From sequence record OR896821.1: 46,458 nucleotides of DNA. One strand, 5' to 3'. The translations under genes were made by a program, and so were the position numbers. The notes under the pieces were generated by a model. The model searched no databases. It was not told the DNA's origin and saw only the letters and a program-made list of their open reading frames with translations. This document shows, piece after piece, positions 1 through 46,458 of this stretch. Positions within the stretch are counted from its first letter, which is position 1. Each line of letters starts with the position of its first letter. This stretch comes from Escherichia phage Phagiculus.

Positions 1-69
1 GTTGTTTGCGTTAGTGAATGAGCCGCCATTCTGAATGTTAACGCAGTAATCAAATGTATCTAATGCCAT
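1..69 (-). CDS. minor tail protein M-like, N-terminal 23 codons (gene split by window boundary; continues from 46180..46458)
   Basis: ATG at 69..67 on minus strand; reading runs off window start and continues in frame with window end; FGNGYEQRG and FFWKTPQGE resemble lambda gpM motifs. Confidence 0.7.
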   Translation of the reverse strand, partial: MALDTFDYCVNIQNGGSFTNANN

Positions 70-100
70 CTAAAATCCTTAGGGGCCGAAGCCCCATCAA

Positions 101-3073
101 TTAATTGTAACCCTTAAGAAAATTATAAAGCCTACCGCCTTGCTGCGCTGACTTCTCAAGCTCCTCAGCGACAATCAGTCTCACACCGCTCTCAATCGCC
201 TTAGCTTCTCCATCTGAGTTGCTTGAGCCGCCAACATTGACCGTAACTCCGCCAACGTTAACAGATGTTAAGCCGCCGCCAACAAGACCGCCATTCGCAT
301 AACCAGCGCTTAGATTGCCAACTGAGCCGCCATTAGCATATCCACGCATTAGCTTGTAAAGGTTTCCAACGCCAATCCTTGAAGTTGCCTCTTTTGTAAA
401 TACAAACTCTCCTTTGTGAACCGTGCCAGCTGGTTCGTACTTGCCACCGTTACCAGTGTAGCCGCCATCAGCGAAACCTAAAGCAGATATTAGCCCACTG
501 CCAGAGCTAGCTGCCGAGCCGCCACCAAAACTGCTGATAGTTGACTCAATAGCTTTAACTATAAGTAATTGAGTAGCAATCTTAGCGATCTGCTGAAGTA
601 TTGACGCTGCAAACTCCTTAAAGTTCGCCTTACCAGTAGTGAGGAGGCTTGTGATATTGTCTGTAATTCCAGTTAATACACTCTTTGTTAGATCGTAGCT
701 TATTTGGGCGAGGTTAGTTGCTTCAGCTGTGTAATCTTTAAATGCATCACTGGCGCCAGCAAGGAAGTCAGACCTTGCTAAATCCTCCTGCTTATAGAAA
801 GCCTCCTGAGCATCCCTAATTGCTTTATAGTCAGGGGAGTCAAGACTTCCACCCCTATTTAGCTGGTAAGATTCAGCTTTCGCCCTTTCTTGATTTCTGG
901 CATTCTCTATAGACCCGCTACCCCTATTGGATAGAGCAGCAGTCTGAGCAGCTAATTCTCTAGCCTTTTTAAGGTTATCGTCCTGAAGTTTATTCGCCCT
1001 TTCCTGCAAAACAATCTGATCGCCAAGTTCAGCTTTCTGTCTTGCCAATTCGAGAACCTTATCTTTCTCAATGAGAAGTCTGGCCTGCTCTCTTTTTATT
1101 GTACCAGCGTCCCGGCGCTCCTCGAGGATTGCAAACTTAGCTTCTTCGGCGAACAGCTGCTTGCGTTCATTACTGATTACGTCGCTAATCTGGCGGTGAT
1201 CTTTAAGAACCCTAAGCTGAGCCTCTAATGCAAGGACTCCAGACTCGTAGCTCAGCGTCAAATCTCTTTGGCTACCTACACCCTCCTTGCGCTTCTTGTT
1301 GGATTCCTCAATATCCTTAAGCTCCTGCTCTCTTGCCTTCCTACGCTTTTCAAATTCAGCGTCTGACTCACCCGTCCTTTGCTTCTCATCCTGAGAAGGC
1401 GTTACATAACCTAACTCACCTTTACGAATCCTAGCATCTCGCTCAGCGATTGACTTGATTAGCTCCTGATTGGCCTTCTCTATACCCTGGTTCTGCTCCT
1501 CAAACTGCTTAATTAGATCACTACCCACTCCTTTGGCCCCTGGTATCTTCTGGAAGGCCTTTAGAGAGGAAATCAAAAAGTCGTTGATGAGAATGTCACC
1601 CTGACCAATAAACAAACTGATTTGCTCAATTGTTTTAGCAACAACATCAGTGATAAGGTTGAGAGCGCCAAGCGTCCTGTTTCCAATGTCAGTCCAAATT
1701 CTTGATATGAAGTTCCTGAAGCCCTGCCATGCTCGCTCAAGTGGTGTAAGTGATTCGGCAACTTTAGTAAGGCGATTCTCCATAACATCAGCGAATAACT
1801 TAGTGGCAGCCGTTACAGCTTGCGTTTCACCTTGCGTAACCCTGATTTGCTCAATGTATTTAAGCTGACCTGCGGTTAAGAAGTTAAACTGCTTATCTAG
1901 CTCAGCAAGACCTTTGACCGGGTCATTTGCAATCTTGTCGAAGCTCTTAACGATATCTTCAGCTGAGTCACCAGTTACTGTGGCCCATCTAGCGGTTGCC
2001 TCTGTGATAATAGAAATCTGCGCTACAGTGCGATTGCCGCTAGCAACCAAACCTTTGGCAATCTCTTGACCAAGCCCCTGAGTTGCACCAGCAGCTTCTG
2101 ACGCGTTCCTGGCAAGATTCTGTATCGCAGCAGCAGATAAATTCGCATTCTGCCCAGTCAGTGTAAGAGTCTTTTCAAGCTGCGCCGTATTCTGGTATGC
2201 CTGGTAAGCCGACAATCCTAAAGCACCAAGAGCTACACCAAGCGCGCCAGCTGCAACTATAAAAGGATTCAATGCTGCAAGTGCAAATCTGAAGGTGTTA
2301 GCCACACCGCCAAAGCTATCTTTAATCTGTCCACCCTGCTGGATTGCAATCAACCAGATTGGAATACCGCCAGCGAGTGAGGTCCCGATATCTGTAATTT
2401 GCGCTGGCAACTGCCTGATTGCGTTTCTATACTCACCAGCGCTAAGTCCTGACTTTCTGAATGCACCGGACTGAGCCGACAATGCCGCAGAAGCTCTATT
2501 TGATGCATCAGCTATCTGATTAATAATAGGCGCCGCCTGGCTTGAAACACCCAACTCAGCAGCGCGAAGCTTAAGTAATTCCTCTCGAGTTAGTGTCGCC
2601 GCCTGCGCCTCCGCCTGCAAAGACTTAAGGAATCTTTCTGCCTGAGTCGCCGCTGTAGCTTTTGCCTTTGATGCCTCTATCGCCGCTCTGCCTTCCTCTG
2701 TCAAGGCGCGCTGATTCGTTCTCAGGCGATTTGTTTGCGTCTCCAGTGCCTCGCTTAAGCGGTAGAACTCAGCCTCTGGAACAACTCCAGCCGTAAAAGC
2801 CTTGTCCAGTGAGTTCGCGGCTTCCTGCAACTTACGCAGCTTTGATGCGGTCGGGTCGATTGCTGATTGTAAAGACTGAAAGGCGCTACGCTGCTCAGAA
2901 AGATAACGAGCTGTATCTCTTGCTTGATTTTTTGCTACCTGTTCGGCGTTAACGAAGCTACTAATTCCAGCTGCAGCTTGCTCGTTTGCGCGCTTAAATT
3001 CCTGCAACGACCTAGTGCCCTGGTCTACCTGCCTTACGTCTACGCCTAATGTAATTCCGGCAAATTCAGCCAT
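101..3073 (-). CDS. tail tape measure protein
   Basis: about 990 aa, coiled-coil rich, Gly-rich C-terminus, directly downstream of chaperone G/GT and upstream of M-L-K-I-J; GGAGG RBS before ATG at 3073 (ORF-track start at 3121 lies upstream of the terminator-like hairpin). Confidence 0.85.
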
Positions 3074-3083
3074 ATTACCTCCA

Positions 3084-3110
3084 TAAAAAAACCTCCACGA
3101 GGGAGGTTTA
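3084..3110 (-). terminator. intrinsic terminator-like hairpin between chaperone GT stop and tape measure start
   Basis: minus strand ACCTCC-CTCGT-GGAGGT followed by TTTTTTT, then GGAGG RBS. Confidence 0.45.
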
Positions 3111-3434
3111 TTTCTTAACATGCTGCATCATATCCAGAGCCTTATACTCAAGTATGCGCAGGTCGTTTAAAACCATCTCTTTATCTTTGACATTATACAC
3201 ATCAAAGAGAAATGGTAGTACTGAATAATCTAATCCTGTCGCGCCGTTCATCCCGACTCGCCATTGAGTAGCGGAAGCCTGATAGATATTCCATGCGCAC
3301 ATCATGTCATCATCGAAGAATAATTCCTCTGGCCCTTCATCTTCGTAATCTGAGCGGCGCATACCAATAGCTTCAAGTTCCGCATCTGTAGGCTCCTTCT
3401 GATACTGGAGGAATACGGCGCGTTTTAGTTTTTT
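3108..3434 (-). CDS. tail assembly chaperone T-frame extension (expressed as G-T fusion by -1 frameshift)
   Basis: -1 frame open from slippery site to stop at 3108; covers the ORF-track 84-aa ORF. Confidence 0.6.
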
Positions 3435-3742
3435 GCTCGCTGACCTGCGAGTGCCTGCATATATGCGTTAGTTAACGCCAGTACCGAAGCAGGGAAAAGA
3501 GAAACTAATTCCTCGATATTTTCATCATTAAAATCTTCCTCAAGGTTCCAGTCAGAGCAGATTTCCTTAACGAAGTCGTAATCCTTCAACCCTTCAGTCT
3601 GGAAGATTTCCTGAATCTCTTTAGCTTTACGGTGCTTTGCTGTAAAGATTACCTCAGCTTCCTCGCCGTTAATCATCTGGAATTTAACAGGCAGCTTAAA
3701 ATCAGGTAAAGCGCCAAGTGTTAATTTGAATTTTGCAGCCAT
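3425..3742 (-). CDS. tail assembly chaperone (lambda gpG-like)
   Basis: 105-aa acidic protein directly upstream of tape measure; AGGAG RBS; ends in frameshift site. Confidence 0.65.
   Translation of the reverse strand: MAAKFKLTLGALPDFKLPVKFQMINGEEAEVIFTAKHRKAKEIQEIFQTEGLKDYDFVKEICSDWNLEEDFNDENIEELVSLFPASVLALTNAYMQALAGQRAKN
3428..3434 (-). other. programmed -1 ribosomal frameshift slippery heptamer A_AAA_AAC
   Basis: minus-strand AAAAAAC immediately before the G stop codon; -1 frame continues open for about 107 codons. Confidence 0.6.
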
Positions 3743-3788: not shown

Positions 3789-4490
3789 TTATTTACTGTT
3801 AGCAAGGTATAGCGCTTTAGCAAAGCCTCTTGGGGTAAGGCTTCTAATCATCTTAGTTCTTGCGCTCTTCCCGCCAAGTTTAGCCCAGCCTGGATTATCG
3901 GATGAGTTAGCATTAACCATCTTATCCTCAGGCATAACAAAGCCGTTTCCAGTCCAGAGGCAAGTTTTCTTATTGTAAGTATCCCTTCCAGGAATTATCT
4001 CAGGGAAGAACGGGTGCTTGTCATCCTCATCAAGATAGCCACCAAAATCACAAGGATGGAAAGTGTGATTTGGCCTTCTCCACATCGATGACAATACGCT
4101 AACTGGGTTCTCTATCATATATGGAGCGTTAAAGTGATTGGCTATATACTCAGCAATTCTGCAAGTTGACACCGCCTTGCGCTGAAAATCAGGGTCTTTT
4201 TCACCCTTAGATTTAAAGTGTCTTGAACCCGATACAGCAAGGTCAGTACACGGAGGGAATGCAATTATTAAATCTGGCTCACCAAAATAGCCTTTAACAG
4301 CCAGGTCCGCGAAAGATGAATCAATCCATGCATTAATGTATGTTATGTTCTCATGCTGAATCTTTGAGTTGTATTTGGCGTAGTCACCGTGGTCAGCGTC
4401 GTCATAGTTAAAACAAATCACCTTGTGACCGTTTTCTGCCCACGGCTGAGCTGCGATACCTGAACCATCAAATAAGCTGAATACTAACAT
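3789..4490 (-). CDS. DNA (cytosine-5) methyltransferase-like protein
   Basis: motif I-like LFDGSGI, motif IV-like FPPCTD with Pro-Cys, motif VI-like IENPVS; GAGGG RBS before ATG at 4490; preceded by terminator. Confidence 0.5.
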   Translation of the reverse strand: MLVFSLFDGSGIAAQPWAENGHKVICFNYDDADHGDYAKYNSKIQHENITYINAWIDSSFADLAVKGYFGEPDLIIAFPPCTDLAVSGSRHFKSKGEKDPDFQRKAVSTCRIAEYIANHFNAPYMIENPVSVLSSMWRRPNHTFHPCDFGGYLDEDDKHPFFPEIIPGRDTYNKKTCLWTGNGFVMPEDKMVNANSSDNPGWAKLGGKSARTKMIRSLTPRGFAKALYLANSK

Positions 4491-4525
4491 TATTAAACCC
4501 TCTTGTTTTCGATGGGTCCAATATA

Positions 4526-4552
4526 ACAAAAAAGACCCCTAAGGGTCTTTGC
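4526..4552 (-). terminator. intrinsic terminator after major tail protein gene
   Basis: minus strand AGACCC-TTAG-GGGTCT followed by TTTTTT. Confidence 0.6.
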
Positions 4553-4564
4553 AAAAAGTGCTAT

Positions 4565-5215
4565 TTATGCTGCCAGGAAGCTGTAGCGTCCTCGTACCGT
4601 AATTGCTACGGATACAGTTTCGATTTCGTTAACAGAAACGTTTGGCGTTTCGTTGAATGCGATAGTGCCAGTCCACAAGCGAACTTCACCAGCCTTAGGT
4701 ACGTATGCGCGAATCGCCAGAAGTGCACCAGTCTCATCGTAGTTGCGAAGGATTGGGTAAATCGGGTTGGTGAAGTCGTGCGCAAAGGTGTAAGTGGTGT
4801 TAACAGCTGACTTATAAGTCGGAATCTGCTGCTCACGGTCATCTGCCAGACACTGATAGGTAACAAACTGCTGTTCACCGCCGTCAGTAGAAACATCCTG
4901 AATACAAGGCATTTCATACCAGCTAAGAATCTTGTAGATTACCGCGGTGCCGCCAGCAGGGAACTGCATAACGTCGCTAGTGTCGATACCTTCGACGGTA
5001 ATAGTTGTTGCAGTGGTGCTAACTACTCGCAGTTGCTTCTCGGAAAGCTTAGACCAGCTTGAGGATTCAACAACGATAAAGTCACCACTTGCAAAATCAG
5101 AAGCGTCAGCAACCGTCATTACTGGTTGGGCTGCGTTGCTTACTGCGGTTACCTGAACTGATTCTCCAGCTGAACCCTGGATAAAGATTTGAGTACCGTT
5201 ACTCAAGTGTGCCAT
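4565..5215 (-). CDS. major tail (tube) protein
   Basis: position between neck/tail-completion genes and chaperones; AAGGAG RBS before ATG at 5215; flanked downstream by strong terminator. Confidence 0.55.
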   Translation of the reverse strand: MAHLSNGTQIFIQGSAGESVQVTAVSNAAQPVMTVADASDFASGDFIVVESSSWSKLSEKQLRVVSTTATTITVEGIDTSDVMQFPAGGTAVIYKILSWYEMPCIQDVSTDGGEQQFVTYQCLADDREQQIPTYKSAVNTTYTFAHDFTNPIYPILRNYDETGALLAIRAYVPKAGEVRLWTGTIAFNETPNVSVNEIETVSVAITVRGRYSFLAA

Positions 5216-9936: not shown

Positions 9937-10470
9937 TTAAAGAACCTTTACGCACAGTGTCTTGCCTGAAATGGTTTCACTCCTCAGTTTGCCAACTACA
10001 ACTGACGCCCTCATCTTTGTCCAGTCATCTGGAATCTTGTAGTAATCATAATATTTCTGGAGAGTGTAATCGTAACCCGTCCCAGAGAAAACAAGGTCAT
10101 CTGATGTGAAGTCATCCGATACAGATAAGTTTGAGATTATAACCTCGCCATCTTCAAGATGTTGATCAAGGATGTTCATGTATGACTCGGCGTACTGGTT
10201 TTCAAGCTGGGATCTGTCAATATTAACCGATAGGAGCCTAAATCTATCATAATTTAAAACTGATTTGCGGTTTGATAGAGTTACACTAGCCACCGACACC
10301 GACTCGGTAATAGCCTTAGTTCTTGCGTTAAATGATAATCCGTGATTAATTGAAAAGTTAGAATTTGATGAAGCGTCAGCTGTCGATGTATATCCTGATG
10401 CTGATAATTCATGAAAGAAAGAATTCATCTCACCAACACTAGAGAATGATACCGATATTTTCTTATACAA
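9937..10470 (-). CDS. hypothetical protein (177 aa), TTG start
   Basis: AAGGAG RBS 7 nt before TTG at 10470; bracketed by terminators. Confidence 0.5.
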   Translation of the reverse strand: MYKKISVSFSSVGEMNSFFHELSASGYTSTADASSNSNFSINHGLSFNARTKAITESVSVASVTLSNRKSVLNYDRFRLLSVNIDRSQLENQYAESYMNILDQHLEDGEVIISNLSVSDDFTSDDLVFSGTGYDYTLQKYYDYYKIPDDWTKMRASVVVGKLRSETISGKTLCVKVL

Positions 10471-10512: not shown

Positions 10513-11040
10513 TTAAGCAGTAGCTAATGCTGAATCTGCGGATTGAATCAGCTGAACTTCAACGATTGCACCATCGTAGCTTTCGCCTTGTTTAATTGGG
10601 TCGCTACCGTTGTTAGCATAAGCCGAAGCATAGCCACCAGCAAATGTAAAACCAGTTTCCCAAGTAGTGTCTGCCGCTTTAGCAACAACAACACCACTTG
10701 CGTTAACGAAAACCTTGCTACCAAAATCTGGTGCACTTGCTAGAGTAGTACGAACCCAGATACGACCATGAGTCATTACGTTAACCGCTTCATTTACGCG
10801 AGCAGTTCCGTCTGGAGTCTCGTAGTGGGATTTAACAACAACACCATAAGGTTTAACTGGTGTGCCAGTAACGACTGGAAGACCAACAACCTTGTGACCA
10901 TCTACAGGCTGAGCTGAGGTAACGCCAACAAAAGTGCCAACTGGAATTGCAGCAGTACCACCAACCACACAAGCACCATCAATATTATACAGGGAAGTAT
11001 CAGCTACCATGCCTGCCAGAGCTACGGAACGAATTGCCAT
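10513..11040 (-). CDS. head decoration/cement-like protein
   Basis: 175 aa Gly/Val/Ala-rich protein after scaffold gene; AAGGAG RBS. Confidence 0.4.
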   Translation of the reverse strand: MAIRSVALAGMVADTSLYNIDGACVVGGTAAIPVGTFVGVTSAQPVDGHKVVGLPVVTGTPVKPYGVVVKSHYETPDGTARVNEAVNVMTHGRIWVRTTLASAPDFGSKVFVNASGVVVAKAADTTWETGFTFAGGYASAYANNGSDPIKQGESYDGAIVEVQLIQSADSALATA

Positions 11041-12154: not shown

Positions 12155-12192
12155 TAATTAACCCTCACCATAACCAGTGTAATTGATAAGCA

Positions 12193-13464: not shown

Positions 13465-13514
13465 GTGTTTCTCCAATAAAAAAGCCCCCATATAGAAGGC
13501 TAGTTTAGCACGGT

Positions 13515-15083
13515 TTATCTAATTCCAGCTAGTCGCTTCAGAGCTGCTTTAGGGTCATCTGCGAGGTTAAGTTCACAGTTGATAGCCATTGTTGTGGTAT
13601 CCACGATGTCATCATGAAGGTGACTGTCGTCAGCAGTGAATGCAGCAAACTCAGCAAGGAATGCAGGCAACCAGGGCGCAGACTCTGGCAAAATAACGTT
13701 ACCAGCCTTAATCTGAGGTAATGCACTCATTACTCGCGTAAGTTTGTCGCTGTCCGGAACAAACGGCTCTATAGGTGTTCTCATCGTTCTGCTTGCTGAC
13801 TGAATCAGTCCGATGCCAGACGCCTTCTTCTCGATGATAACTTTGCGAAGGATTCCGTCAATCTTATTCATTGAGCGGGCCTTAGCTTCAAACTCGACGA
13901 GAGTAGCCTCAAGTTCAGGCGCTTCCCATTTGCCGCGAACCATGTCAAGTAAGTAAGCCTTACGGTCCTTAACTCCCCACAGCTGGAATACGGAGAAGTC
14001 GCTATAGCTCTTAGTAGTCATCGCAGTGTCAGCCGTGATAAATCGGTAATCGTACTTAGCTGGAGGTCTGTTGTTCTCATCAATTCGAGCAAACCAGTCT
14101 ACGTTAACCAGGTTTCCACCTAGAGCCACTGGCTCCTGCTGGTACTGACTCATGAATGTGTAGTGGTCAGAGTCCATCATAGACACCAGGTCGTGAACAG
14201 ATTCCTTTTTAGGGAAGTAGCTATAATACTTCACGCCATCGCGTTCAACATATTCGCTTGATAGCACGTCATCAATGAATTGCTGCTTAATCCAATCAGG
14301 CAATGTATCGACGTAATCTTCAGTAACTAGCGCAGGAATCTTAACCACATCGAAGTCTATACCCATACCACCAGAAGTCATGAACCAAGTTGAGTCGTTC
14401 ACGTGCAAGCGCTGCTGGATGGAAAGAATTGGCGTGGCCTTACCTTTTACCGAACTTGCACGACGAGAGCGAACGGTGTTTTTAAGAAGCGTATGAACAG
14501 CCTCTCTGCGAACCTTGCTAAACATGTCGTCTGCTTTATCAATATCATCCAGCATTAAACAGCCGCTATAATTATCAGTGATATATCCCCCGCGAGCGCC
14601 AATTATCTGACCGCCAATCGCCTTAGAGATGGACTCAAACCTGACCTTTCCAGACTCATCAAGAACCTGAATCTCATCATCCTTGCATGTTCCAAACTTA
14701 GACGGGAATAACTCCTGGAACTCAGTTGACTTAATCAGGTCACGCACCCGCTTTGAGTTACGCTTCACCAGACTATCCGAGAACGATAAGTTAAGGTTCC
14801 TAACCTTTTGTAGCTTGAGCATTGAGTAGACTGGAAAGTGGATTGAAGTAATCTCAGTCTTACCAGCACCAGGCGCTACGTTAATGATTGTATCTTTGCG
14901 CTCGCCACTGATTACCTCGTCGATGATTCTGCAAAGGTACTTGTGATGCCAGTTGGGGATATAGCGTTCGCCCTGTGTTAGCTGAAACCACACCCGAAGG
15001 AATGCCTCGAAGTTGTGAGTGGATAAAGCTTTAACTGCCAGCTTTTCGGCTGGCGTCATATCTTCCCAAACTAGTGTATTCAT
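13515..15083 (-). CDS. terminase large subunit
   Basis: Walker A VAPGAGKTE; 522 aa; ATGA overlap with upstream small gene. Confidence 0.85.
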   Translation of the reverse strand: MNTLVWEDMTPAEKLAVKALSTHNFEAFLRVWFQLTQGERYIPNWHHKYLCRIIDEVISGERKDTIINVAPGAGKTEITSIHFPVYSMLKLQKVRNLNLSFSDSLVKRNSKRVRDLIKSTEFQELFPSKFGTCKDDEIQVLDESGKVRFESISKAIGGQIIGARGGYITDNYSGCLMLDDIDKADDMFSKVRREAVHTLLKNTVRSRRASSVKGKATPILSIQQRLHVNDSTWFMTSGGMGIDFDVVKIPALVTEDYVDTLPDWIKQQFIDDVLSSEYVERDGVKYYSYFPKKESVHDLVSMMDSDHYTFMSQYQQEPVALGGNLVNVDWFARIDENNRPPAKYDYRFITADTAMTTKSYSDFSVFQLWGVKDRKAYLLDMVRGKWEAPELEATLVEFEAKARSMNKIDGILRKVIIEKKASGIGLIQSASRTMRTPIEPFVPDSDKLTRVMSALPQIKAGNVILPESAPWLPAFLAEFAAFTADDSHLHDDIVDTTTMAINCELNLADDPKAALKRLAGIR

Positions 15084-15595
15084 AGCTTATCCATAATTGA
15101 TTCAAGTGCGGCCTTCATAACTTCTTCATCGTTAACAACAGCACTAGATGCGTTGTTGATGTTAACTTCTTGAGGCTTGTCGATACCTAAGTCTTTACCA
15201 ATCAGACTAGAGTTAACGATGTTATTCACACCCAGCTGATACTTCTGCTCAAAGATGACTGAATCTACAAACTCCATAACTTCAGAGAAGCCAGGGGATG
15301 AGCGCCAGTGGCTAATGGCATTTCCCGTAACCCCGCAAAATAATTGGAATCCGTTAATGGTGAAAACTCGCGGCTTATGAATAAGGTTCTCAGTAACAAT
15401 CCCCTGATGAGATGCAGTTTCAATAGCCTTAATTGCCTGGCTCTCTGCCCAAGTGAAATACCTTACCGCCATATCAAACAATTGCTCTGGCGTGAACTTG
15501 TGGTTAATCTTCAGGTTAGCAATATCTCCGTACTTCTTGTTGTAAAGCTCCTTGAAGTTACCAATCTTCTGGTGAATCTTCTTCTCTTCTTGCAT
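15080..15595 (-). CDS. terminase small subunit (putative)
   Basis: 171-aa ORF translationally coupled to terL; AAGGAGG RBS before ATG at 15595. Confidence 0.45.
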   Translation of the reverse strand: MQEEKKIHQKIGNFKELYNKKYGDIANLKINHKFTPEQLFDMAVRYFTWAESQAIKAIETASHQGIVTENLIHKPRVFTINGFQLFCGVTGNAISHWRSSPGFSEVMEFVDSVIFEQKYQLGVNNIVNSSLIGKDLGIDKPQEVNINNASSAVVNDEEVMKAALESIMDKL

Positions 15596-15889: not shown

Positions 15890-15965
15890 TGGCGTTCCGC
15901 GCTGGACTCGAACCAGCAACTGAGACTTAGGAGGTCTCTGCGTTATCCCGTTACGCCAGCAGAAC
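15890..15965 (-). tRNA. tRNA-Arg (anticodon CCU)
   Basis: hand-folded cloverleaf: 7-bp acceptor GTTCTGC/GCGGAAC, D-stem GCGT/ACGC, anticodon stem GAGAC/GTCTC with loop CTCCTAA, T-arm GCTGG-TTCGAGT-CCAGC, discriminator G, encoded CCA. Confidence 0.8.
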
Positions 15966-18576: not shown

Positions 18577-19014
18577 GTCTTTCCCCTCTCGTTAAGTTAC
18601 ATCCATAATATAGCGGACTTATATACGTGTCAATAGCTGTGAAAAAAAATAGACATTGCATGTTTTTACGCTTTAGCCCATGAGAGCCCCGCCACTGCTG
18701 ACTGTGAATCGCTGTGCACAATGTAGATAGAATCCCGCCGGACCCCCTATATATATCTATATCCTTTCGGAGATATGAATATACATCATTGAGAGGAAAC
18801 ATATGGGTATCACCATTATGGCTATCTACACTATTTACATAACAATATTATAATAATAATAATAACTCTAAGTTGTTTATATATATAGATATTTTATTGT
18901 AACTAGCTGTAAATTTACGCGGATTGCGTAGATAAATTCCCGCGCGCGCATTTTTGTCTATAGCTTTAACTTCGTTTACGCGTATCGCATATAGATGAAG
19001 AAATTTAGCCGCAA

Positions 19015-19170
19015 ATGTGAGATGTGCAATCACCATCATCATTTCATTCAATCAATCCATCAATCATTGCAGAAATGGCAACAATCAACAAACCTGTTGC
19101 AATCGATGAAATATTGCTGTATTTGCAATAGTTATGTGAATCATTGCAATTACTGCAACAATCCATAAAT
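19015..19170. repeat. cluster of about 7 palindromic TTGCAA(T) sites (iteron-like)
   Basis: gtgcaatc, cattgcag, gttgcaatcg, tttgcaatag, cattgcaatt, ctgcaacaatc within about 150 bp. Confidence 0.5.
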
Positions 19171-19178
19171 CTAACGAA

Positions 19179-19222
19179 TAGCACTTTTTGCTAAAGACGA
19201 AACCACCATGATTGGGTATAGT
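19179..19222 (+). promoter_or_regulatory. conserved promoter module
   Basis: tagcactttttgcta then aagacg then TATAGT at 19217..19222; leader CCATCGAAACGAA. Confidence 0.6.
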
Positions 19223-19260
19223 TACTCCATCGAAACGAACCAAACACAGGAATCTGAATC

Positions 19261-19675: not shown

Positions 19676-19676
19676 A

Positions 19677-30459: not shown

Positions 30460-30469
30460 TCGAGGTTAA

Positions 30470-35966: not shown

Positions 35967-36440
35967 TCATTCGTGATTTTCATGAAATCCAAGCTCTAAC
36001 AGCTTATTCCTTCTTGATTCCGCAGCATCACTCAATGAGTTAAAGTACCCACAGTGGTAATACTTACCATTACACCTAACTGACGCTTTATATTTATTCA
36101 TCCTTTTGCAAAAAGTTACACCTTGAACTCCAGTTTTTGAGTTTTTGCCTATTGATTTATTTTTATTGTTATCAGAGCAAGTGACAAGTCTAAGGTTTTC
36201 AATTCTGTTATCTCCATTATCATGATTTATATGATCAACTTGCATTCCTTTCGGTATTGGTCCGTTAAACATCTCCCATACAACCCTGTGAACAAAGTAT
36301 ATCTTCTTATCAAGACCAACTCTCTTATATCCTGTCTTTTCTACCCTCCCAGCCTCCCATCCGACACATATAACTCTTGATGGCTTAACCTTCCAAAATA
36401 TTAAACCTTCACTGTAATCAAACCAATCATGCCAATTCAT
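35967..36440 (-). CDS. HNH homing endonuclease with AP2-like domain
   Basis: QVDHINHDNGDNRIENLRLVTCSDNNKNK; C-terminal ELGFHENH. Confidence 0.8.
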   Translation of the reverse strand: MNWHDWFDYSEGLIFWKVKPSRVICVGWEAGRVEKTGYKRVGLDKKIYFVHRVVWEMFNGPIPKGMQVDHINHDNGDNRIENLRLVTCSDNNKNKSIGKNSKTGVQGVTFCKRMNKYKASVRCNGKYYHCGYFNSLSDAAESRRNKLLELGFHENHE

Positions 36441-38869: not shown

Positions 38870-39272
38870 TCATGAGCCCGCACCAACACTGGATGTAACT
38901 CATGTAAACGCTGTAACAGTAGTTTTTGCGCCCCTATCTATATATCCATATGCATTTGGCAACACCAGAAACAGAACTTAGTCATTTCAAAAAAACATAT
39001 CAACACAACCATAGAAGGTAGTTACACTATATACAAACAAATATAGTAATAATAATAATTACTCTAAACCCTTATTATATAAGGATTCTTTAGTGTAACT
39101 AATGCGTATCTGCGCGTAAAAAGCGTATACAATTTCCCGCGGGTCAGGATTGCATACATCGATTTACATAGGTTACGCGTATATCAAATAGCACGATTTG
39201 CTAAAGACTGACTGAAGCACCTTTGGTATAGTTACTCCATCGAAACGAAAAACACTTAATAAGGATTCAAAA
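38870..39272. repeat. AT-rich control region B, paralogous to 18670..19260
   Basis: same ordered sequence blocks as region A, ending in conserved promoter module. Confidence 0.6.
39189..39232 (+). promoter_or_regulatory. conserved promoter module
   Basis: tagcacgatttgcta, aagact, TATAGT at 39227..39232; leader TACTCCATCGAAACGAA identical to the one at 19222..19250. Confidence 0.6.
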
Positions 39273-39604: not shown

Positions 39605-39628
39605 GAAAAAGCCCCGAAAGGGGCTTAG
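39605..39628. terminator. bidirectional terminator between convergent genes
   Basis: AAGCCCC-GAAA-GGGGCTT with flanking A-run. Confidence 0.6.
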
Positions 39629-40296
39629 TCGTATGCGGCGGTATATATTGCTGTAACTCTAGCACCGTTTGTCGTTCCACCAGAAGCCTGCGTGCCATTT
39701 ATCAATGGAACTGCATTTATCCTAGTCTGTGATCCATTGTATCTACAGGATATGCCAGCAGTAGCCGACCTTATTATCTGCTGACCATTCTGAACCTGAT
39801 AAACGTTAAGAGTGCCAAGAGCGGCTGGGCAAACAGCTACGCTTCCGCTGTAAGTTCTATCTATGTCTATACCTCGCCCATCAACGGTAAACAAATCGCT
39901 AAGAACCTTACTCTCATTAGTGAGGACTAATTTGCCTGCTGAATCCCATATAGCCATACCCCATTGCGGAAGTGATTGCGGAAATATAGCAAAAACATAA
40001 GCCGTCAAGCTAAAAGCCTGCCCTGCATAGTTTGTTCCACTAATGTAAATGGTTCCGGCATTAGCGCCTTCAGTAATGTTGTACGCTATAACTGCAACGC
40101 CTTGAGAAGGGCTGCTTGTCTTAATAAATACACTTACCGGATAAGTGGAATTGAAAGGCAGGTACTGAGTAACGCTATGTGCCGCCGAATTCCCAGATGA
40201 CTGGAATGTGTACTTCCCGTAGAGGCAGAATGGAGTTGAAGCTGGAGTTATGAATGGGTTTCCATTAACATCAATTATTGCACCATAATCAGCCAT
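39625..40296 (-). CDS. tail-associated protein (223 aa)
   Basis: downstream of J; N-terminus MADYGAIIDVNGN paralogous to neighbour. Confidence 0.45.
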   Translation of the reverse strand: MADYGAIIDVNGNPFITPASTPFCLYGKYTFQSSGNSAAHSVTQYLPFNSTYPVSVFIKTSSPSQGVAVIAYNITEGANAGTIYISGTNYAGQAFSLTAYVFAIFPQSLPQWGMAIWDSAGKLVLTNESKVLSDLFTVDGRGIDIDRTYSGSVAVCPAALGTLNVYQVQNGQQIIRSATAGISCRYNGSQTRINAVPLINGTQASGGTTNGARVTAIYTAAYD

Positions 40297-40601
40297 TAGT
40301 TCTTCTCCAGGTAGACTACCATTTTACACTTAGTCGCAGGATAGTAACCATCAGCCGCCGCATTACCTGGGGCTATCGTTATTGTGTTTCCGCTAGCGAC
40401 TATATATCTTCCGTTGTTAGGTCCTGATTCATCCAACGTTATAAAGTACCCAACTTTATACCCAGTTGGTATCTGGTATGAGTAACTACCTGATGTTTGA
40501 CCCGTGGCAAGATCTACAAACGCAACCACCGTCACAGGCTTAATCCCATAGTTATTGTAATTACCATTCGCGTCATATGTAGCAATGCCATACTCAGCCA
40601 T
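40296..40601 (-). CDS. tail-associated protein (101 aa)
   Basis: downstream of J; N-terminus MAEYGIATYDANGN. Confidence 0.45.
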   Translation of the reverse strand: MAEYGIATYDANGNYNNYGIKPVTVVAFVDLATGQTSGSYSYQIPTGYKVGYFITLDESGPNNGRYIVASGNTITIAPGNAAADGYYPATKCKMVVYLEKN

Positions 40602-40648: not shown

Positions 40649-43600
40649 TTAGAAAGTACCAGTCAAACGACCAATCTGTACGCGAAGCCTTCCGTTTGCA
40701 TCAGCAACTGAAATGGTCTGGTTTGTCTGCTTCATCCTGCCTTCTCCAGCCGTAAATCCGTTGTTTTCGAAAGTTCCAGCTTTATCAAGCCTCCATCCAG
40801 TATTGTTTGCGACAAAGTTGTTAGACTGAATCGCGTTGCCAATCTTAGCGTTAGTGATTGAACCGTCCTGAATCACCGCGCTTTGGATGAATACCTGGTT
40901 GTTCTCGACAACGAAAGGCAGCGACCACTGACCGGAACCCTGGCTAATGCCGTTACTGATTGCAAATCTGTTAGCATCAAAGATGAACTGACTTCTAACA
41001 TTACCACCAGATCCAACAAGCTCCATACTCATGCCCGCGCCGTACTCCATTCCCTGATACTTAAGGCCAAGCTTAACACCATACTGAACACCAACACCTT
41101 CAGCCGTCGCGTAAGTATCTAGCTTCTCATTAAGAGCGGCTTCATTTTCCCCAAGCCTTGCGCTTAATGCCGTGTCAGCTGTAGCCCTTGCTTCAGTCTC
41201 TGTTGCCAGCGCTGTTTCGATGGTTGTAATCTGTCCTACAATCTCATCATCTATCTGCGCTTTAAGCTGCGTAAGGGCCTCTACACGAGCCTGTGTTTCA
41301 TCAGCTATCAGATTTACAGCCTGTCGATATTCCGCCTTCCTTGCGCCGTTTTCGCGTGTCATAATCCGAACATCAATATCGTTTGCCAGAGCGTTCTCAA
41401 TGATTGCCTCGGCCTGGTTTTGAATATCAGTGTTTGAATTAATGGCATTCTGAAGAAGGTATTTGTAACCATCAGAATCTTCAATATCAACCTTGATTTC
41501 ACCAATGATTGCAGTTACATCATCAGAAGCCATGCCTCTAACAAACTCAGTCCATTGAGAAACGTTGCCGATTCTGTCAATGGCCCTAGCCCTGTACCAT
41601 CTTACGTTGCCTGCCGGAAGAGTAGTGTGCCAGTACTCATACTGAGGGTATGGAACAAGGCTCAGTAATGAAGCATTCTCGGGAGAATAAGTACCGTCAC
41701 CATTATCAGGAACTTGCTGCAACTCAACATATGCAGTATCCGCACTGTTCTCGCCAAAGCCCCACTTAACTCTGATGCCAAATACCTCATCATCTGAAGC
41801 GGTTATTACAGCTAACGGTTCAGGCTCGCCAATCTTTCCAGTCAGAGAAACGGTTACGATTTCAGACCATGCGGAAACTGATTTCTGGTCAGTAACAGCT
41901 CGCACCCTAACGTCATAGATGCCAGCGTAGATGCCCTCAATATCAACCTCGGTGTTGGCAGTCTCCGGTACGTTAATCCAGTTACCGTTATTCTTACGCC
42001 ACTGCACGTTGTATGTTTTTGCATACTGCACTTTGTCGTAACCAATAACCATCGTTTCAACGCTTAATCCCTGAACAACCTTACTGTAGCTTGATACTCT
42101 TAGGTTCTCTGGTGGCAAGATTCTGTCAGGGTCAACGATACTTGTTGGTCTGTCATCGATGTTCACACCGTAGTCAATCTCATCGTACTTGTTCGGGTCA
42201 TACTGCACGGCGGTAATGTTGTATTGGAATGAATCATCTCCGTCAGTATTTGCTTTTTGAATCCCTGTCACCACATATTGCTGCAAAGCCAGATTCTGCT
42301 TATCAATTGCGAATACTGTGTCAGGCTGCGGATTGAAGCTAAACGCGGTGTTAAGTTCAATCGTTAACTTATCCTGAGATACAGAGGCAATAGTGCGGTA
42401 CTCTGGGCTTCCGTCCGGCTTGTTAATCAGAATCCTGTCGCCAGGTTCAGCATCAATCGCGAATGGAACGAAAACTTGCAAACCAGAAGCCTCAACGATA
42501 CGACCGGAAAGGTTTAGCGTGTAGTTGCTTGACCAAGCCTGGTCATTAACAGCAATAACATCACCAACCATTGGAATCATGCCTTCAAGACCAGTGGTGA
42601 AGCTGATTGTTTCGCTTCTCAGGTTCGTCTTCAGCAACCAGCGACCCCTACGGTTCGCTTCACTCCTTCGCGTACAGCCAATGGCAGAAAGGTCAACTGG
42701 ATTAAATCCAAATCTGCGCGTAGCCTCGAGCTCGAATACTGGCTCAATATCTTGCTGGTAGTTGTTCTGCTCATCATCAAACTGGACGTTAGCGGTAGTG
42801 TACAGGCTCTTGTCGCTTGAGAATGTGCGGCTAAACAATCCATCCACAACGTTATCGTTTGTGAATACGTAGCTCGGCTGACGCGGTTTATCAACAACAA
42901 TACCAATCTTCTCGCCATCATAAAAAGTAAGACCACGGAAGATTGAGCAAATATCACGAATAAGCTGATATGCCTCTACCTTCTGTTGGATAACTACGTC
43001 GCACAAGTAGCGAGGCTCCAAACCACCCTTACCGTCAGGAACCATCTGGTCACAGAATTGTGCGGCTTCATACAGCCCCCACTTATCAATCTCAACACCA
43101 AGCTCGCGCTGGTCAAGGCCGTATCGCTGACTAACCACCAGGTCATAAAGAACCCATGCCGGGTTATTTGACCACGCCATCTTGAAAGTTCCATCCCAAG
43201 TGCCGCTATACTGCCGCGTCTCTGGGTTGTAGTTTGTTGGAACTCTAATCAACTTCCATTTCTTCTTAATGGCGATAGTCGGGATGCCATTTGGGAATAG
43301 GTCAGAGCTAAACTCAACATAAACTAAAGCGGTTAGTGGATACCGGAATTTTGCATCAATTACTTCCTGGTAGGTTGTAATCTGCATACCGTTAACTAGT
43401 GTGCTACTCGTTGAGTCGGGAGTTATCTTACGAATGCGGACAAGAGCACTACTAAACTCGGCTGGTAAATTGACACGGATAGAGCGGTCATAACCCGTTG
43501 TAGTCTTACCGTTAGCCACGCCTCTAGTATATTGGGTGTACGCTCCGCCATTAACAGATAAATCAATTGCATACTCACACGTTGTGCCATTTAAATCTCC

Positions 43601-44005
43601 ATTACTTTCCTGCTTAACAAGACGAGGCCAGAATAACTTCACTCGAATCGCTGAAAGCTGATTGTTAGTTACTGAAATGATGTACGGGGTATCATTATTG
43701 ATTTCTCTGGATACCTGGAACTCAGATGATGCCCCATCAAGACCCGCAATGTAATTTTGCGATTGCGTGCCAGGGCGAAACTGAGCGCTTACACCTTCAT
43801 AGTTGAAAGAGTTATCCGCGTTCTGAACGGGAACATCTGCAAGGTACAAATCCTTAAGTGAGAAGCTAGAGTCAACCTCGCCATCGGCAACAGCAAGCAG
43901 AACCTTAATCTTGTTCAGTGAAATCAGGTTATCTTCTTGCTCAACTGGTGTGTGTGTCTTTTGACTACCACCCTTGCTTCCGTAAATCTTTGGCAAATCG
44001 GCCAT
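40649..44005 (-). CDS. tail tip / host specificity protein J-like (central tail fibre)
   Basis: about 1120 aa; N-terminal SKGGSQKTHTPVEQEDN resembles lambda J; fibronectin-like middle region; start among three close ATGs (44044/44035/44005). Confidence 0.85.
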   Translation of the reverse strand: MADLPKIYGSKGGSQKTHTPVEQEDNLISLNKIKVLLAVADGEVDSSFSLKDLYLADVPVQNADNSFNYEGVSAQFRPGTQSQNYIAGLDGASSEFQVSREINNDTPYIISVTNNQLSAIRVKLFWPRLVKQESNGDLNGTTCEYAIDLSVNGGAYTQYTRGVANGKTTTGYDRSIRVNLPAEFSSALVRIRKITPDSTSSTLVNGMQITTYQEVIDAKFRYPLTALVYVEFSSDLFPNGIPTIAIKKKWKLIRVPTNYNPETRQYSGTWDGTFKMAWSNNPAWVLYDLVVSQRYGLDQRELGVEIDKWGLYEAAQFCDQMVPDGKGGLEPRYLCDVVIQQKVEAYQLIRDICSIFRGLTFYDGEKIGIVVDKPRQPSYVFTNDNVVDGLFSRTFSSDKSLYTTANVQFDDEQNNYQQDIEPVFELEATRRFGFNPVDLSAIGCTRRSEANRRGRWLLKTNLRSETISFTTGLEGMIPMVGDVIAVNDQAWSSNYTLNLSGRIVEASGLQVFVPFAIDAEPGDRILINKPDGSPEYRTIASVSQDKLTIELNTAFSFNPQPDTVFAIDKQNLALQQYVVTGIQKANTDGDDSFQYNITAVQYDPNKYDEIDYGVNIDDRPTSIVDPDRILPPENLRVSSYSKVVQGLSVETMVIGYDKVQYAKTYNVQWRKNNGNWINVPETANTEVDIEGIYAGIYDVRVRAVTDQKSVSAWSEIVTVSLTGKIGEPEPLAVITASDDEVFGIRVKWGFGENSADTAYVELQQVPDNGDGTYSPENASLLSLVPYPQYEYWHTTLPAGNVRWYRARAIDRIGNVSQWTEFVRGMASDDVTAIIGEIKVDIEDSDGYKYLLQNAINSNTDIQNQAEAIIENALANDIDVRIMTRENGARKAEYRQAVNLIADETQARVEALTQLKAQIDDEIVGQITTIETALATETEARATADTALSARLGENEAALNEKLDTYATAEGVGVQYGVKLGLKYQGMEYGAGMSMELVGSGGNVRSQFIFDANRFAISNGISQGSGQWSLPFVVENNQVFIQSAVIQDGSITNAKIGNAIQSNNFVANNTGWRLDKAGTFENNGFTAGEGRMKQTNQTISVADANGRLRVQIGRLTGTF

Positions 44006-44053
44006 ATCATATAACCTCGTTATTTGTTTAACCATTTGTGACATTCTACACTA

Positions 44054-44077: not shown

Positions 44078-44084
44078 TTGTGAT

Positions 44085-44651
44085 TTAACTAATATCTTCA
44101 CTATAACTTCCTGCGCTAAACACTGAGCCGCCAACAGTCCTGTATCCATATGGCAGGCAAACCGGATAACCAGCTGCGACCGTGTTTACTGCGGATCCGA
44201 ATGCGTATGAAGCCCTGTTGCTTGTCTGCGATGCCTGTTGGTTAAGACCTGTGGCCTGCGGAGCTAAAAGCTGAGCCACCCCACCAGCCAGTAAACCCAC
44301 AGCAACCGGCAGAAGTACAGGGAAAAAGTAAGAGGCAACAAGAAGCACACCTCCGAGGATGGTCTGGAATAAACCGCCAGACTTACGACCTTGCGGCACA
44401 GGTATGATGCGAAGTTCATTAACCGCCTTGAAGTCCTTAACCTGGTGCTCGCTCAGGTTCTTTCCGTCTGCAAATACTGCAAATCTGGTATTCTGTCCAA
44501 CGTGGCTGCCCATAAACTCCTTAAATCCAGGAACCACAACGCACATTGCACGAATAGCTTCGTCAACAGAGTTAACAGCCAGCTCATGCATCTTTCCAAA
44601 TTTACGCCCAAGAGATAGGCCTAACTTAATCTTAATCTTTTTCTGGATCAT
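44085..44651 (-). CDS. tail assembly protein I-like
   Basis: position after K; hydrophobic Gly/Ala/Leu-rich C-terminal half. Confidence 0.6.
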   Translation of the reverse strand: MIQKKIKIKLGLSLGRKFGKMHELAVNSVDEAIRAMCVVVPGFKEFMGSHVGQNTRFAVFADGKNLSEHQVKDFKAVNELRIIPVPQGRKSGGLFQTILGGVLLVASYFFPVLLPVAVGLLAGGVAQLLAPQATGLNQQASQTSNRASYAFGSAVNTVAAGYPVCLPYGYRTVGGSVFSAGSYSEDIS

Positions 44652-45369
44652 AACTAACCTCCAATGGTAAATCTTTATGGCGAACCACTCTGACAGTCCG
44701 CTCACGATAGTAATCTCCGTACAAATCAACCTTGCTCATTCTTCCGTAAAGGTGATGAAGGAACTTGTTATCACCTAGGTAAATCCCTGCGTGATTAGTT
44801 TTCTCGCTCTGAATCTGCATCATAATCATTGCGCCAGGCACTAACTCTGATTCTACGAAGCCCTCTTTAACCCAGTTTTCATCGTAAATGTTATCTGGGT
44901 ATTGGTTCTCCCACCACGGATAATCGACCCGGTAGTCGCTCAGCCTAACTCCATAATTGCCGTGGTAAGCCATAATGAGAGACCAGCAATCGAAACTACC
45001 AAGACCCCACGGTCTACCAGCAAGTGGCATTCTTTCCGGCTGAATAACTCGTAAGTCACCTTCAGGGACACTAACAATAATGTAAGGCAACTCGCACTCA
45101 TTACAGCTACATATGTCGGCAGCGCTGGGTCTAGTCGTAGCGCCATCACCAGTGTGAGAATGGACGACATAAACAATATTGCTTTCATCTGAAATCTCCA
45201 TGTATTCTTTAGCGTCTAAGATGAATGATTGCTCTGGTGTTTTTGAGCGATTGGTAATTCGGTGATACTTCTGAGACTTTCCCGTCTGAGTCACGACACC
45301 GCAGCACTCTTGAGGATAAACTTCATTGGCGTGTCGGAATATGTCGATTTTTACGTTTGGATTAATCAT
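44632..45369 (-). CDS. tail assembly protein K-like (JAB/MPN plus NlpC/P60)
   Basis: JAMM-like VHSHTGDGATTRPSAAD and Cys/His NlpC/P60-like C-terminus. Confidence 0.8.
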   Translation of the reverse strand: MINPNVKIDIFRHANEVYPQECCGVVTQTGKSQKYHRITNRSKTPEQSFILDAKEYMEISDESNIVYVVHSHTGDGATTRPSAADICSCNECELPYIIVSVPEGDLRVIQPERMPLAGRPWGLGSFDCWSLIMAYHGNYGVRLSDYRVDYPWWENQYPDNIYDENWVKEGFVESELVPGAMIMMQIQSEKTNHAGIYLGDNKFLHHLYGRMSKVDLYGDYYRERTVRVVRHKDLPLEVSYDPEKD

Positions 45370-45378
45370 TTGCTCACC

Positions 45379-46134
45379 TTAGTTCTGATTGTTTTTAGCC
45401 TGCAGGCTTGCCGCCGCACACCCGCCGAAATCCAACTGATTGTTTGCTCCAAATCTAAGCTTACAGGCCGTAACTGTTCCGGCACAGAAGTCTTGAGATG
45501 GGTCAGCTACAGGGTTGTTATCTTTGTCGAAGTATCTGTTACCCATGTATCCGCATCCGTTACCGCTTCGATACCAGCCGCGTTGAGACCAGTAGCATAC
45601 TGACTGGGTTAGTCGCGCCGGAATGTAAATACCATCCATATCCATTGGGCTAGTTAACTCAAAGGATGCCGTCTTGTAGTCTACATGCTTAGGTCGCTCA
45701 ATGAAGTAAACCAGCTTTCGGTAATCCCCATCAGCGATGGTCCCATCTTCATTAATGTTCTCTCTCATCGTAATCCAGATTGTTACTTTAGCCTGAACCA
45801 GCCCGTTATAGGTTCGGATTAATGCCGAGATGTTCTGATCAACGTTTGATACCACCAATGTCACCTTGTTTGCTTTACCATCAGATGTCATGTTGATACC
45901 CTGGATACCGAAAGGTCGCGGGCCGTACTCTTCACCACGGAAGATAATATTCTTAACCGGAAGCGGTGTGCCATTCATCTGTGCTTCCATGATTTCTTCC
46001 GGCGTGTAGCTAATGTTCTCACCGTGGAACCTGTAAGTCCTGGCGCCAAACTTACTACCATCAACTTCAATAAGTGTCACAACCTCACCAGGGAATAGTG
46101 ACTGCAACTGATTTTCAAACTTTACACTAGCCAT
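45379..46134 (-). CDS. minor tail protein L-like
   Basis: 251 aa with C-terminal conserved Cys cluster; position between M and K. Confidence 0.75.
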   Translation of the reverse strand: MASVKFENQLQSLFPGEVVTLIEVDGSKFGARTYRFHGENISYTPEEIMEAQMNGTPLPVKNIIFRGEEYGPRPFGIQGINMTSDGKANKVTLVVSNVDQNISALIRTYNGLVQAKVTIWITMRENINEDGTIADGDYRKLVYFIERPKHVDYKTASFELTSPMDMDGIYIPARLTQSVCYWSQRGWYRSGNGCGYMGNRYFDKDNNPVADPSQDFCAGTVTACKLRFGANNQLDFGGCAAASLQAKNNQN

Positions 46135-46150
46135 ATAAACCTCAATAAAA

Positions 46151-46175
46151 AAGCCCCTCGTAGGGGCTTAGTATA
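46151..46175 (-). terminator. terminator-like hairpin between M and L genes
   Basis: minus strand AAGCCCC-TACG-AGGGGCTT followed by TTTTTTATT, then GAGG RBS. Confidence 0.5.
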
Positions 46176-46179
46176 TCAC

Positions 46180-46458
46180 TTAACTGGCTGACGTGAACAC
46201 TTCAGTAAATGAGCATGTTACAGTCTGCACTCCGCTAGAAACAGGTGATGCTCCGATACTATCCTGGGATACTACGAAGATTCTCGTTTCTCCCTGCGGA
46301 GTCTTCCAGAAGAATGGAGTTAAGATATGATTCTCCATGAACTCAATTACTTCGTTGAATCTATTCCCAGTGTATGCGATTGCGTAGGTCCTTTTGTTCG
46401 TTCGATACCCTCCAGTTCCACGCTGCTCATAGCCATTACCAAATGAAACGACTCTTAC
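46180..46458 (-). CDS. minor tail protein M-like, C-terminal 92 codons (gene split by window boundary)
   Basis: stop TAA at 46180..46182; open to window end; in frame with 1..69. Confidence 0.7.
   Translation of the reverse strand, partial: VRVVSFGNGYEQRGTGGYRTNKRTYAIAYTGNRFNEVIEFMENHILTPFFWKTPQGETRIFVVSQDSIGASPVSSGVQTVTCSFTEVFTSAS

Follow-up and report, generated by a model that had tools for sequence, protein, structure and literature searches.

Phages related to T1, including T1 itself and SU57, package linear DNA by a headful mechanism, and this DNA is terminally redundant and circularly permuted (PMC7718038). In restriction and PFGE tests, the DNA of SU57 behaved as circularly permuted, without a cos site and with no sub-molar pac fragment, and PhageTerm gave a preferred end (PMC7718038). 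The sequence record of T1 annotates a 2,800-bp terminal repeat_region (1-2800) at its left end. The packaging of T1 is only partially permuted, so that fixed or preferred ends could also exist in the phage described here, invisible in its sequence alone. As for how such genomes are opened in the databases, the record of AHS24 begins by convention at the gene for the small terminase subunit (TerS), those of SU57 and T1 begin at a suggested physical end, and that of Jk06 is labelled circular.

Here we consider the 46,458-nt record of Escherichia phage Phagiculus (OR896821.1). We will call this whole stretch of DNA the window. In contrast to the records of its relatives, it opens inside a coding sequence and not at a conventional point. 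We are highly confident that the window holds one full genome of unit length with a circular map, that it was opened inside the gene for a gpM-like tail protein, and that the circle likely results from headful packaging.

A gpM-like gene is split across the ends of the record

The 5' part of the gene (1..69, minus strand) begins with an ATG at position 69 (cat at 67-69 on the plus strand), continues for exactly 23 codons, and leaves the record at position 1. It encodes MALDTFDYCVNIQNGGSFTNANN, and residues 1-24 of gpM from SU57 match 69..1 (by tblastn). The 3' part (46180..46458, minus strand) has the last 92 codons, which run from 46458 to 46183 in the same frame as 69..1, followed by a TAA stop codon at 46182..46180 (tta at 46180-46182 on the plus strand); residues 25-114 of gpM from AHS24 match 46458..46189. 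When we joined the last 600 nt of the window to its first 600 nt and translated the minus strand, we obtained a single open frame of 115 amino acids: MALDTFDYCVNIQNGGSFTNANN, then the record junction, then VRVVSFGNGYEQRGTGGYRTNKRTYAIAYTGNRFNEVIEFMENHILTPFFWKTPQGETRIFVVSQDSIGASPVSSGVQTVTCSFTEVFTSAS and the stop codon. There is no frame break or stop codon at the junction, and the motifs FGNGYEQRG, FFWKTP, and TVTC are all present. The original prediction, that the reading frames starting at 69 and ending at 46180 form one in-frame protein of about 115 amino acids with these three motifs, was correct.

Upstream of the ATG on the minus strand, the tape measure gene ends with a stop codon at 103..101. 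The spacer between the two genes (70..100, minus strand), as read from the sequence, contains a GC hairpin (GGGGC-UUCG-GCCCC at 82..95) together with a ribosome-binding site, AAGGA, some 8 nt ahead of the ATG. The element at 82..95 was not called by a simple scan for terminators, and we describe it as a hairpin only. The record is thus opened between codons 23 and 24 of a gpM-type gene, at an arbitrary base. The split has no biological meaning; it is an accident of bookkeeping.

The joined protein belongs to the family of the lambda tail tip protein M, as had been proposed from its motifs. It matches Phage_min_tail (Pfam PF05939) with 67 bits, where the gathering threshold is 39, and residues 4-111 align to all of the profile (positions 1-108 of 108). 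Because of this full-profile match, the in-frame join is far beyond chance. The protein also matches the minor tail proteins of PHROG_14 (E = 2e-25). Its closest solved relative is a 117-amino-acid minor tail protein (PDB 9l9p_H, E = 1e-27), and another match in PDB is named "Distal tail protein gp20". The size is similar to that of lambda gpM (115 versus 109 amino acids) and the whole family profile is matched, but similarity to the lambda protein itself is distant (PDB 8iyk_M; E = 1.3e-5 across residues 12-84 of the query, by phmmer against PDB). Homologues from relatives in the Rogunavirinae are 61-66% identical. In an alignment with the homologues from Sd1 and e4/1c, the residues that flank the junction do not vary, and no insertion or deletion interrupts the alignment at this point. 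Chain M of lambda is present in 30 copies across five PDB entries. By analogy with lambda, both in its assembly state and in its role in the tail tip, the gpM-like protein would form a ring within the tail-tip complex, where the tail tube has its distal end.

The neighbors of the gene are as expected for gpM. The genes for the tape measure protein, M, L, K, I, and J follow each other in this order, all on the minus strand, and as in lambda, gpM lies between the gpH-like tape measure gene and a gpL-like gene, with homologues of gpK, gpI, and gpJ afterwards. The tape measure protein (101..3073) has the Pfam domains TMP_2 and Tape_meas_lam_C; its counterpart from AHS24 aligns to 3073..104, and on the metagenome contig L007 it has 990 amino acids. 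Directly after the stop codon of gpM, a sequence scan identified a hairpin with a T-run that resembles an intrinsic terminator (46151..46169, minus strand). AHS24 has an annotated terminator between gpM (gp21) and gpL, in the interval that matches this hairpin. Next is the gpL-like minor tail protein (45379..46134; Pfam Phage_tail_L, E = 1e-45), the gene directly downstream of gpM, and then a gpK-like protein with JAB and NlpC/P60 domains (44632..45369), a gpI-like tail assembly protein (44085..44651; Pfam Lambda_tail_I; 188 amino acids on contig L007), and a gpJ-like tip attachment or central fibre protein (40649..44044; Pfam FNIII-A_GpJ, Phage-tail_3, and Phage_Tail_Tip). This gene order is also found on contig L007 and in Sd1, e4/1c, and AHS24. 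More broadly, in 91 phage records, a 3-kb probe that spans the junction aligned colinearly along 80% or more of its length.

The window is a complete genome

The exact 115-amino-acid sequence is encoded contiguously, with the tape measure and gpL genes flanking it, on four public metagenome contigs from four ENA assemblies. (The assemblies, ERZ14237447, ERZ14237449, ERZ14237450, and ERZ14237451, have consecutive accessions and are probably from one study; although they were assembled independently, they may share a biological source.) Across the junction, all four contigs match the doubled window at 100.000% identity, with no mismatches and no gaps. Contig L007 covers the window from 10069 down to 1 and then from 46458 down to 41953, also with no mismatches or gaps. 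Among the viral contigs of IMG/VR, an exact 40-mer that spans the junction had no match, and a degenerate pattern based on the peptide found only two more distant relatives (L005 and L006, with 66-77% nucleotide identity). The two ends of the record share no residual direct repeat of 5-400 nt.

The proteome of AHS24 can be followed in order around the circle, from 15595 to 104 and then from 46458 to 16266. We found matches for 52 of the 55 AHS24 proteins tested, in circular order and at 30-100% identity. From TerS to the last early open reading frames, the matched genes each occur once, and no module is duplicated. The size of the genome (46,458 bp, 43.8% G+C) is close to that of AHS24 (46,440 bp). 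Because the sequence closes seamlessly in four contigs, the circular complement of AHS24 genes is full, and the sizes agree, we conclude that the record is complete. The same evidence bears out the prediction of a complete genome that was linearised inside the gpM gene.

Origin of the circular map

The original prediction spoke of a closed circular genome. The sequence proves this for the map or assembly, but it does not prove a covalently closed chromosome in the virion.

Small terminase subunits of the P22 gp3 type are associated with pac/headful packaging. The window encodes a TerS of this type (15083..15595, minus strand; Pfam GP3_package; 88% identical to AHS24 and 55% to T1) next to the large subunit TerL (13515..15083, minus strand; Pfam Terminase_6C and PHROG_38; 86% identical to AHS24, 75% to SU57, and 58% to T1). 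Judging from its sequence, the phage would resemble T1, SU57, P22, and Sf6, with a circular map despite linear virion DNA and with a TerS of the P22 gp3 type. We propose that TerS and TerL cut concatemeric DNA by the headful, that the resulting virion DNAs would be linear molecules with terminal redundancy and circular permutation, and that reads from such permuted molecules would assemble into a circle. By analogy with its relatives, headful packaging is a more likely cause of the circular map than covalently closed virion DNA, and headful packaging with permutation is the mechanism that we infer for this phage.

A likely region for the packaging end lies at about 18.6-19.3 kb. An AT-rich and repeat-rich non-coding region at 18577..19260 separates two blocks of small early genes that diverge from each other. 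It is the putative counterpart of the region in which records of T1-like phages place the physical or packaging end. The sequences that flank the ends of the SU57 record map to 19198..19033 and 18901..18847. We had also considered the physical left end of T1 as an anchor for this mapping. However, the first genes of T1 (ST77, ST76, ST71, and ST70) had no tblastn match in the window, and we used the ends of the SU57 record instead. All that the first 540 nt of T1 have in common with the window is a short promoter-like motif that is repeated.

Alternatively, the virion DNA might be linear with fixed ends, a defined direct terminal repeat, and little or no permutation; the assembler would have collapsed the repeat, and the record would have been opened elsewhere. 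The preferred end that PhageTerm gave for SU57 (PMC7718038) and the fixed 2,800-bp repeat in the T1 record are in favor of this explanation. However, SU57 gives the restriction and PFGE patterns of a permuted genome and lacks a cos site (PMC7718038), and the TerS that we found here is of the headful type. We consider fixed ends to be unlikely. Fixed ends would give the circular map another cause but leave the conclusion about the split gene unaffected.

It is even less plausible that the phage, unlike its relatives, is a truly covalently closed replicon, for example a plasmid-prophage or, if sampled from infected cells, a replicative or episomal form. The sequence does close perfectly, and the record of the related phage Jk06 is labelled circular. 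But the gene content is that of a virulent member of the Drexlerviridae: the large open reading frames either have AHS24 counterparts with lytic functions or were scanned singly. Each of the long open reading frames without an AHS24 counterpart was scanned, and none of them is an integrase, a ParA/B partition protein, or a plasmid replication initiator. We rejected a plasmid-prophage or temperate origin for this reason. Furthermore, the isolated relatives are lytic phages whose packaged DNA is linear (PMC7718038). A closed episome is very improbable, and we give it less credence than the new genus-level lineage discussed below.

Finally, we found nothing in favor of a false closure, whether from two unrelated partial reading frames that happen to join in frame or from an incomplete contig that was circularised by mistake. 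It can be dismissed as next to impossible: the joined protein fits its family over its full length, the gene order over the junction is conserved in the 91 phage records, four other assemblies read through the junction at 100% identity, and the gene complement and size agree with those of complete relatives. Headful packaging of permuted linear DNA is the explanation that we prefer.

Implications for annotation and classification

Linear gene callers, including the program that listed the open reading frames used here, drop reading frames that run off the ends of a record. Because gpM is split across the ends, such a program would miss or shorten it; the annotated genome would then seem to lack gpM (a distal tail protein) and to have a disrupted tail-tip module. 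Annotators may wish to re-open the record at a conventional point, either at TerS or in the gap in the early region near 19 kb. A circular map is expected for a T1-like phage; it is not a biological novelty, and it raises no new biological question.

The complete circle does permit taxonomy at the level of the genome. The phage is a virulent, T1-like siphophage of Enterobacteria in the family Drexlerviridae, and it is closest to the Rogunavirinae. Members of the Drexlerviridae have genomes of about 43-51 kb with a conserved gene order and conserved core proteins; the window has 46,458 bp and matches 52 of 55 AHS24 proteins. The best DNA matches are all from Drexlerviridae. With the Rogunavirinae (AHS24, Jk06, e4/1c, and Sd1), the phage shares a nearly equal genome size, the same tail-tip module, the same circular gene order from the terminase to the small early open reading frames, and a tRNA-Arg directly upstream of TerS. 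There are also differences. The head-morphogenesis gene of AHS24 (Rogunavirus) has no match in the window. The window has an extra methyltransferase-like gene inside the block of tail genes and, beside the capsid gene, a gene for a putative 513-amino-acid virion protein with collagen repeats. The C-terminus of the tail fibre differs as well.

Under the ICTV criterion, the genomes of phages in one genus have a nucleotide similarity of about 70% or more along their entire length. Using a VIRIDIC-like measure (coverage times identity), the whole-genome similarity of the window was 55% to AHS24, 53% to Jk06, and 41% to SU57. Megablast matches had identities of about 77-81% and extended over 51-75% of each segment. 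The phage therefore falls outside the genera of these three phages, which are the full genomes that we compared; a closer relative might exist elsewhere. It is probably a new species or a genus-level member of a well-known family. And because none of the three full genomes is more than about 55% similar to it, we tentatively suggest that the phage could belong to a new lineage of the Drexlerviridae at the level of a genus.

A minor tail gene spans the ends of the record

The two ends of the window encode parts of a single protein. On the minus strand, an ATG at 69 (cat at 67–69 of the plus strand) begins a frame that runs off position 1. As 69 to 1 is exactly 23 codons, the record breaks between codons. 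The frame is open again from 46458 down to a TAA (tta at 46180–46182 of the plus strand). When we concatenated the last 600 nt and the first 600 nt of the window and translated the minus strand, the joined frame encoded 115 amino acids without interruption (MALDTFDYCVNIQNGGSFTNANN|VRVVSFGNGYEQRG...FFWKTP...TVTCSFTEVFTSAS*), with no stop or frame break at the junction. The original prediction, that an ORF starting at 69 and another ending at 46180 form one in-frame protein of about 115 amino acids with lambda gpM-like motifs, was correct. Upstream of the ATG, the minus strand reads ...GGGGCTTCGGCCCCTAAGGATTTTAG, which is a GC hairpin and then an AAGGA ribosome-binding site; this stretch follows the stop codon (103..101) of the 1,006-aa ORF upstream. 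No exact direct repeat of 5–400 nt was common to both ends of the window, so no untrimmed assembler overlap is left.

In 91 phage records, at least 80% of a 3-kb probe spanning the junction aligned colinearly, and the gene order was always tape measure followed by three minor tail genes. Contigs that read through the junction are stronger evidence for closure. The exact 115-aa sequence is in a public protein collection (P0013) and is encoded on four contigs (L007–L010) from four ENA metagenome assemblies (ERZ14237447, ERZ14237449, ERZ14237450, and ERZ14237451; these are separate assemblies with consecutive accessions, probably from one study). Public metagenome data also contain a variant at 94% identity. 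By blastn against the doubled window, all four contigs were 100.000% identical through the junction, with 0 mismatches and 0 gaps. In the three that are long enough to cover both sides (L007, L008, and L010), gpM is flanked by the tape-measure and gpL genes; L009 stops just past gpM. For instance, 14,575 nt of L007 (NODE_4 of ERZ14237450; 25,265 nt) correspond to window 10069 to 1 and then 46458 to 41953. No sequence was lost or duplicated at the record cut. L007 itself ends at 41953, within the gpJ gene, and is 100% identical up to there; such an end could reflect strain variation in the C-terminal (receptor-binding) part of gpJ in that sample, or a branch of the assembly graph there.

The joined gene is typical of the gpM family, in line with the gpM-like motifs originally noted. 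The protein matches all 108 positions of PF05939 (Phage_min_tail, the lambda gpM family; 67 bits, versus a gathering score of 39) and PHROG_14 ("minor tail protein", E = 1.7e-25). Among solved structures, the best match listed was 9l9p_H, a 117-aa "putative minor tail protein" (E = 1e-27), and there were also matches to "distal tail protein gp20" (E = 5e-7) and to lambda "Tail tip protein M" (8iyk_M, E = 1.3e-5). Its counterparts annotated as gpM-like in Shigella phage Sd1 and Escherichia phage e4/1c are 61–63% identical to it. In this alignment, the residues flanking the junction (N20 A21. N23 | V24 R25) are invariant, and the sole indel is one residue at column 15, far from the junction.

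Together with its neighbours, all on the minus strand, gpM makes up a lambda-type tail module: the tail assembly chaperone (3425..3742, Phage_TAC_4), a chaperone-associated protein (3108..3362, DUF1799), the tape measure protein (101..3121, TMP_2 and Tape_meas_lam_C), gpM itself (69..1 and 46458..46180), gpL (45379..46134, Phage_tail_L), gpK (44632..45369, Prok-JAB and NLPC_P60), gpI (44085..44729, Lambda_tail_I), and gpJ (40649..44044, FNIII-A_GpJ, Phage-tail_3, and Phage_Tail_Tip). A hairpin like an intrinsic terminator lies 3' of the gpM stop (46169..46151). In the related phage AHS24, a terminator is annotated in the matching stretch, between gpL and the gpM/gp21 genes.

The window is a complete genome

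We translated 55 annotated genes of AHS24, whose complete genome is 46,440 bp, and used the products as queries against the window. 52 of the 55 matched, in order, in reverse orientation, and once around the circle. The order begins with TerS (15595..15083) and continues with TerL, portal, protease, capsid, tail, and TMP, down to 104; gpM (46458..46189) is then reached across the junction. Next come gpL, gpK, gpI, gpJ, anti-repressor, exonuclease VIII, Erf, and SSB, then the tail fibre, primase, helicases, and lysis genes, and last the small early ORFs, to 16266. A tRNA-Arg (15890..15965) lies just upstream of TerS, as it does in AHS24 and SU57. Because of this gene order and the placement of the tRNA, the window is one complete unit genome. 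Together with the seamless closure in the contigs, this upholds the claim of a complete genome linearised inside a gene.

A few long ORFs have no AHS24 counterpart; we scanned these one by one and found no integrase, partition, or plasmid replication protein. A methyltransferase-like ORF (3789–4529, minus strand, 246 aa; PHROG_757 "DNA methyltransferase", E = 2e-88; no Pfam family matched) lies between the genes for the major tail protein and the tail assembly chaperone, and AHS24 has nothing similar at that position. A 513-aa protein (8312–9853, minus strand) combines a DUF1737 N-terminal region with collagen triple-helix repeats (Pfam Collagen, E = 1e-36); its gene lies between those for a cement-like protein (10513..11040) and the major capsid protein, and its homologues in relatives are variously labelled "tail fiber", "head decoration", or "DNA polymerase". 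The ORF at 9937..10470 matched no family. Just downstream of gpJ (39625–40601, minus strand), where AHS24 encodes a membrane protein and a lipoprotein, the window instead has genes for a "membrane associated protein" (PHROG_425) and an "outer membrane protein" (PHROG_557); these two could be superinfection-exclusion proteins.

In the 894-aa tail fibre protein (32061–34745, plus strand), conservation is confined to the N-terminal part: the best PHROG tail-fibre family covers about 340 residues, and the match to AHS24 extends over 118 residues at 72% identity. Roughly the last 550 amino acids had no Pfam match and no PHROG coverage, an indication that a receptor-binding region has been swapped. 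Two genes encode HNH_3 homing endonucleases: one (22401–22883, plus strand) overlaps the 3' end of a helicase gene, and the other (35967–36440, minus strand), between exonuclease VIII and Erf, is 97% identical to HNH2 of AHS24. The prohead protease gene directly follows the portal gene (11051–13491, minus strand), as in SU57, while AHS24 and T1 have an intervening "head morphogenesis" gene that has no match in the window.

Headful packaging may explain the circular map

Headful packaging of concatemers would give linear, terminally redundant, permuted virion DNA, and reads from such DNA would give a circular assembly. We infer that this is the most likely cause of the closure. The small terminase is a member of the P22 gp3 family (GP3_package). 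The large subunit matches Terminase_6C and is 86%, 75%, and 58% identical to TerL of AHS24, SU57, and T1, respectively. In restriction digests and PFGE, SU57 DNA behaved as a circularly permuted genome with no cos ends, and its authors describe T1-like genomes as circularly permuted (PMC7718038). The T1 record has an annotated 2,800-bp terminal repeat. We also considered that the virion or episomal chromosome might be covalently closed. This is not required to account for the closure and is improbable in the virulent family to which the phage belongs. The original description of a closed circular genome holds for the map, but not as a demonstrated property of the molecule.

The opening point of such records is pure convention, as relatives show: the AHS24 record starts at TerS, those of SU57 and T1 start at a suggested physical end, and that of Jk06 is labelled circular. 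If the phage has a preferred packaging end, we would expect it in the non-coding gap at 18577–19260, about 19 kb from the record ends, and the cut in gpM is unrelated to this candidate. The gap is 684 nt, AT-rich, lies between two divergent blocks of small early genes, and contains many closely packed short repeats, both direct and inverted (among them 34-nt repeats with TTGCAA at 19062 and 19139). Sequences flanking the ends of the SU57 record map within it (19198..19033 and 18901..18847). The gap may serve as a packaging-end, early-promoter, or origin region.

A 19-nt motif, AATAGCACTTTTTGCTAAA, has 9 copies in the window (with up to 3 mismatches), versus 0.03 expected by chance. Five are on the minus strand (4547–4565, 17116–17134, 25491–25509, 28059–28077, and 30443–30461) and four are on the plus strand (19177–19195, 19675–19693, 20765–20783, and 39187–39205). 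Judging from the ORF list, the copies appear to be intergenic and directed at downstream genes. The motif includes a -35-like TTGCTA, TATAGT follows about 17 nt later at 19217 and 19714, and the T1 genome has the motif near position 100–125. Probably, the motif is a promoter or UP element shared across the family.

Placement and implications

Every DNA match was to a T1-like siphophage of Enterobacteria in the Drexlerviridae, mostly in the Rogunavirinae (Sd1, e4/1c, Jk06, C119, AHS24, and phiEB49), at ~77–83% identity over only 50–75% of each segment. On a VIRIDIC-like measure, the phage was 53–55% similar to two Rogunavirus genomes and 41% similar to SU57. These values point to a new species of this well-known family, and possibly to a new genus; the placement is provisional, as only three full genomes were compared.

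The split gene is an ordinary finding, a matter of bookkeeping in the record of a complete, circularly permuted phage genome. In practice, it affects annotation, because the ORF listing of the window omits the split gpM gene.
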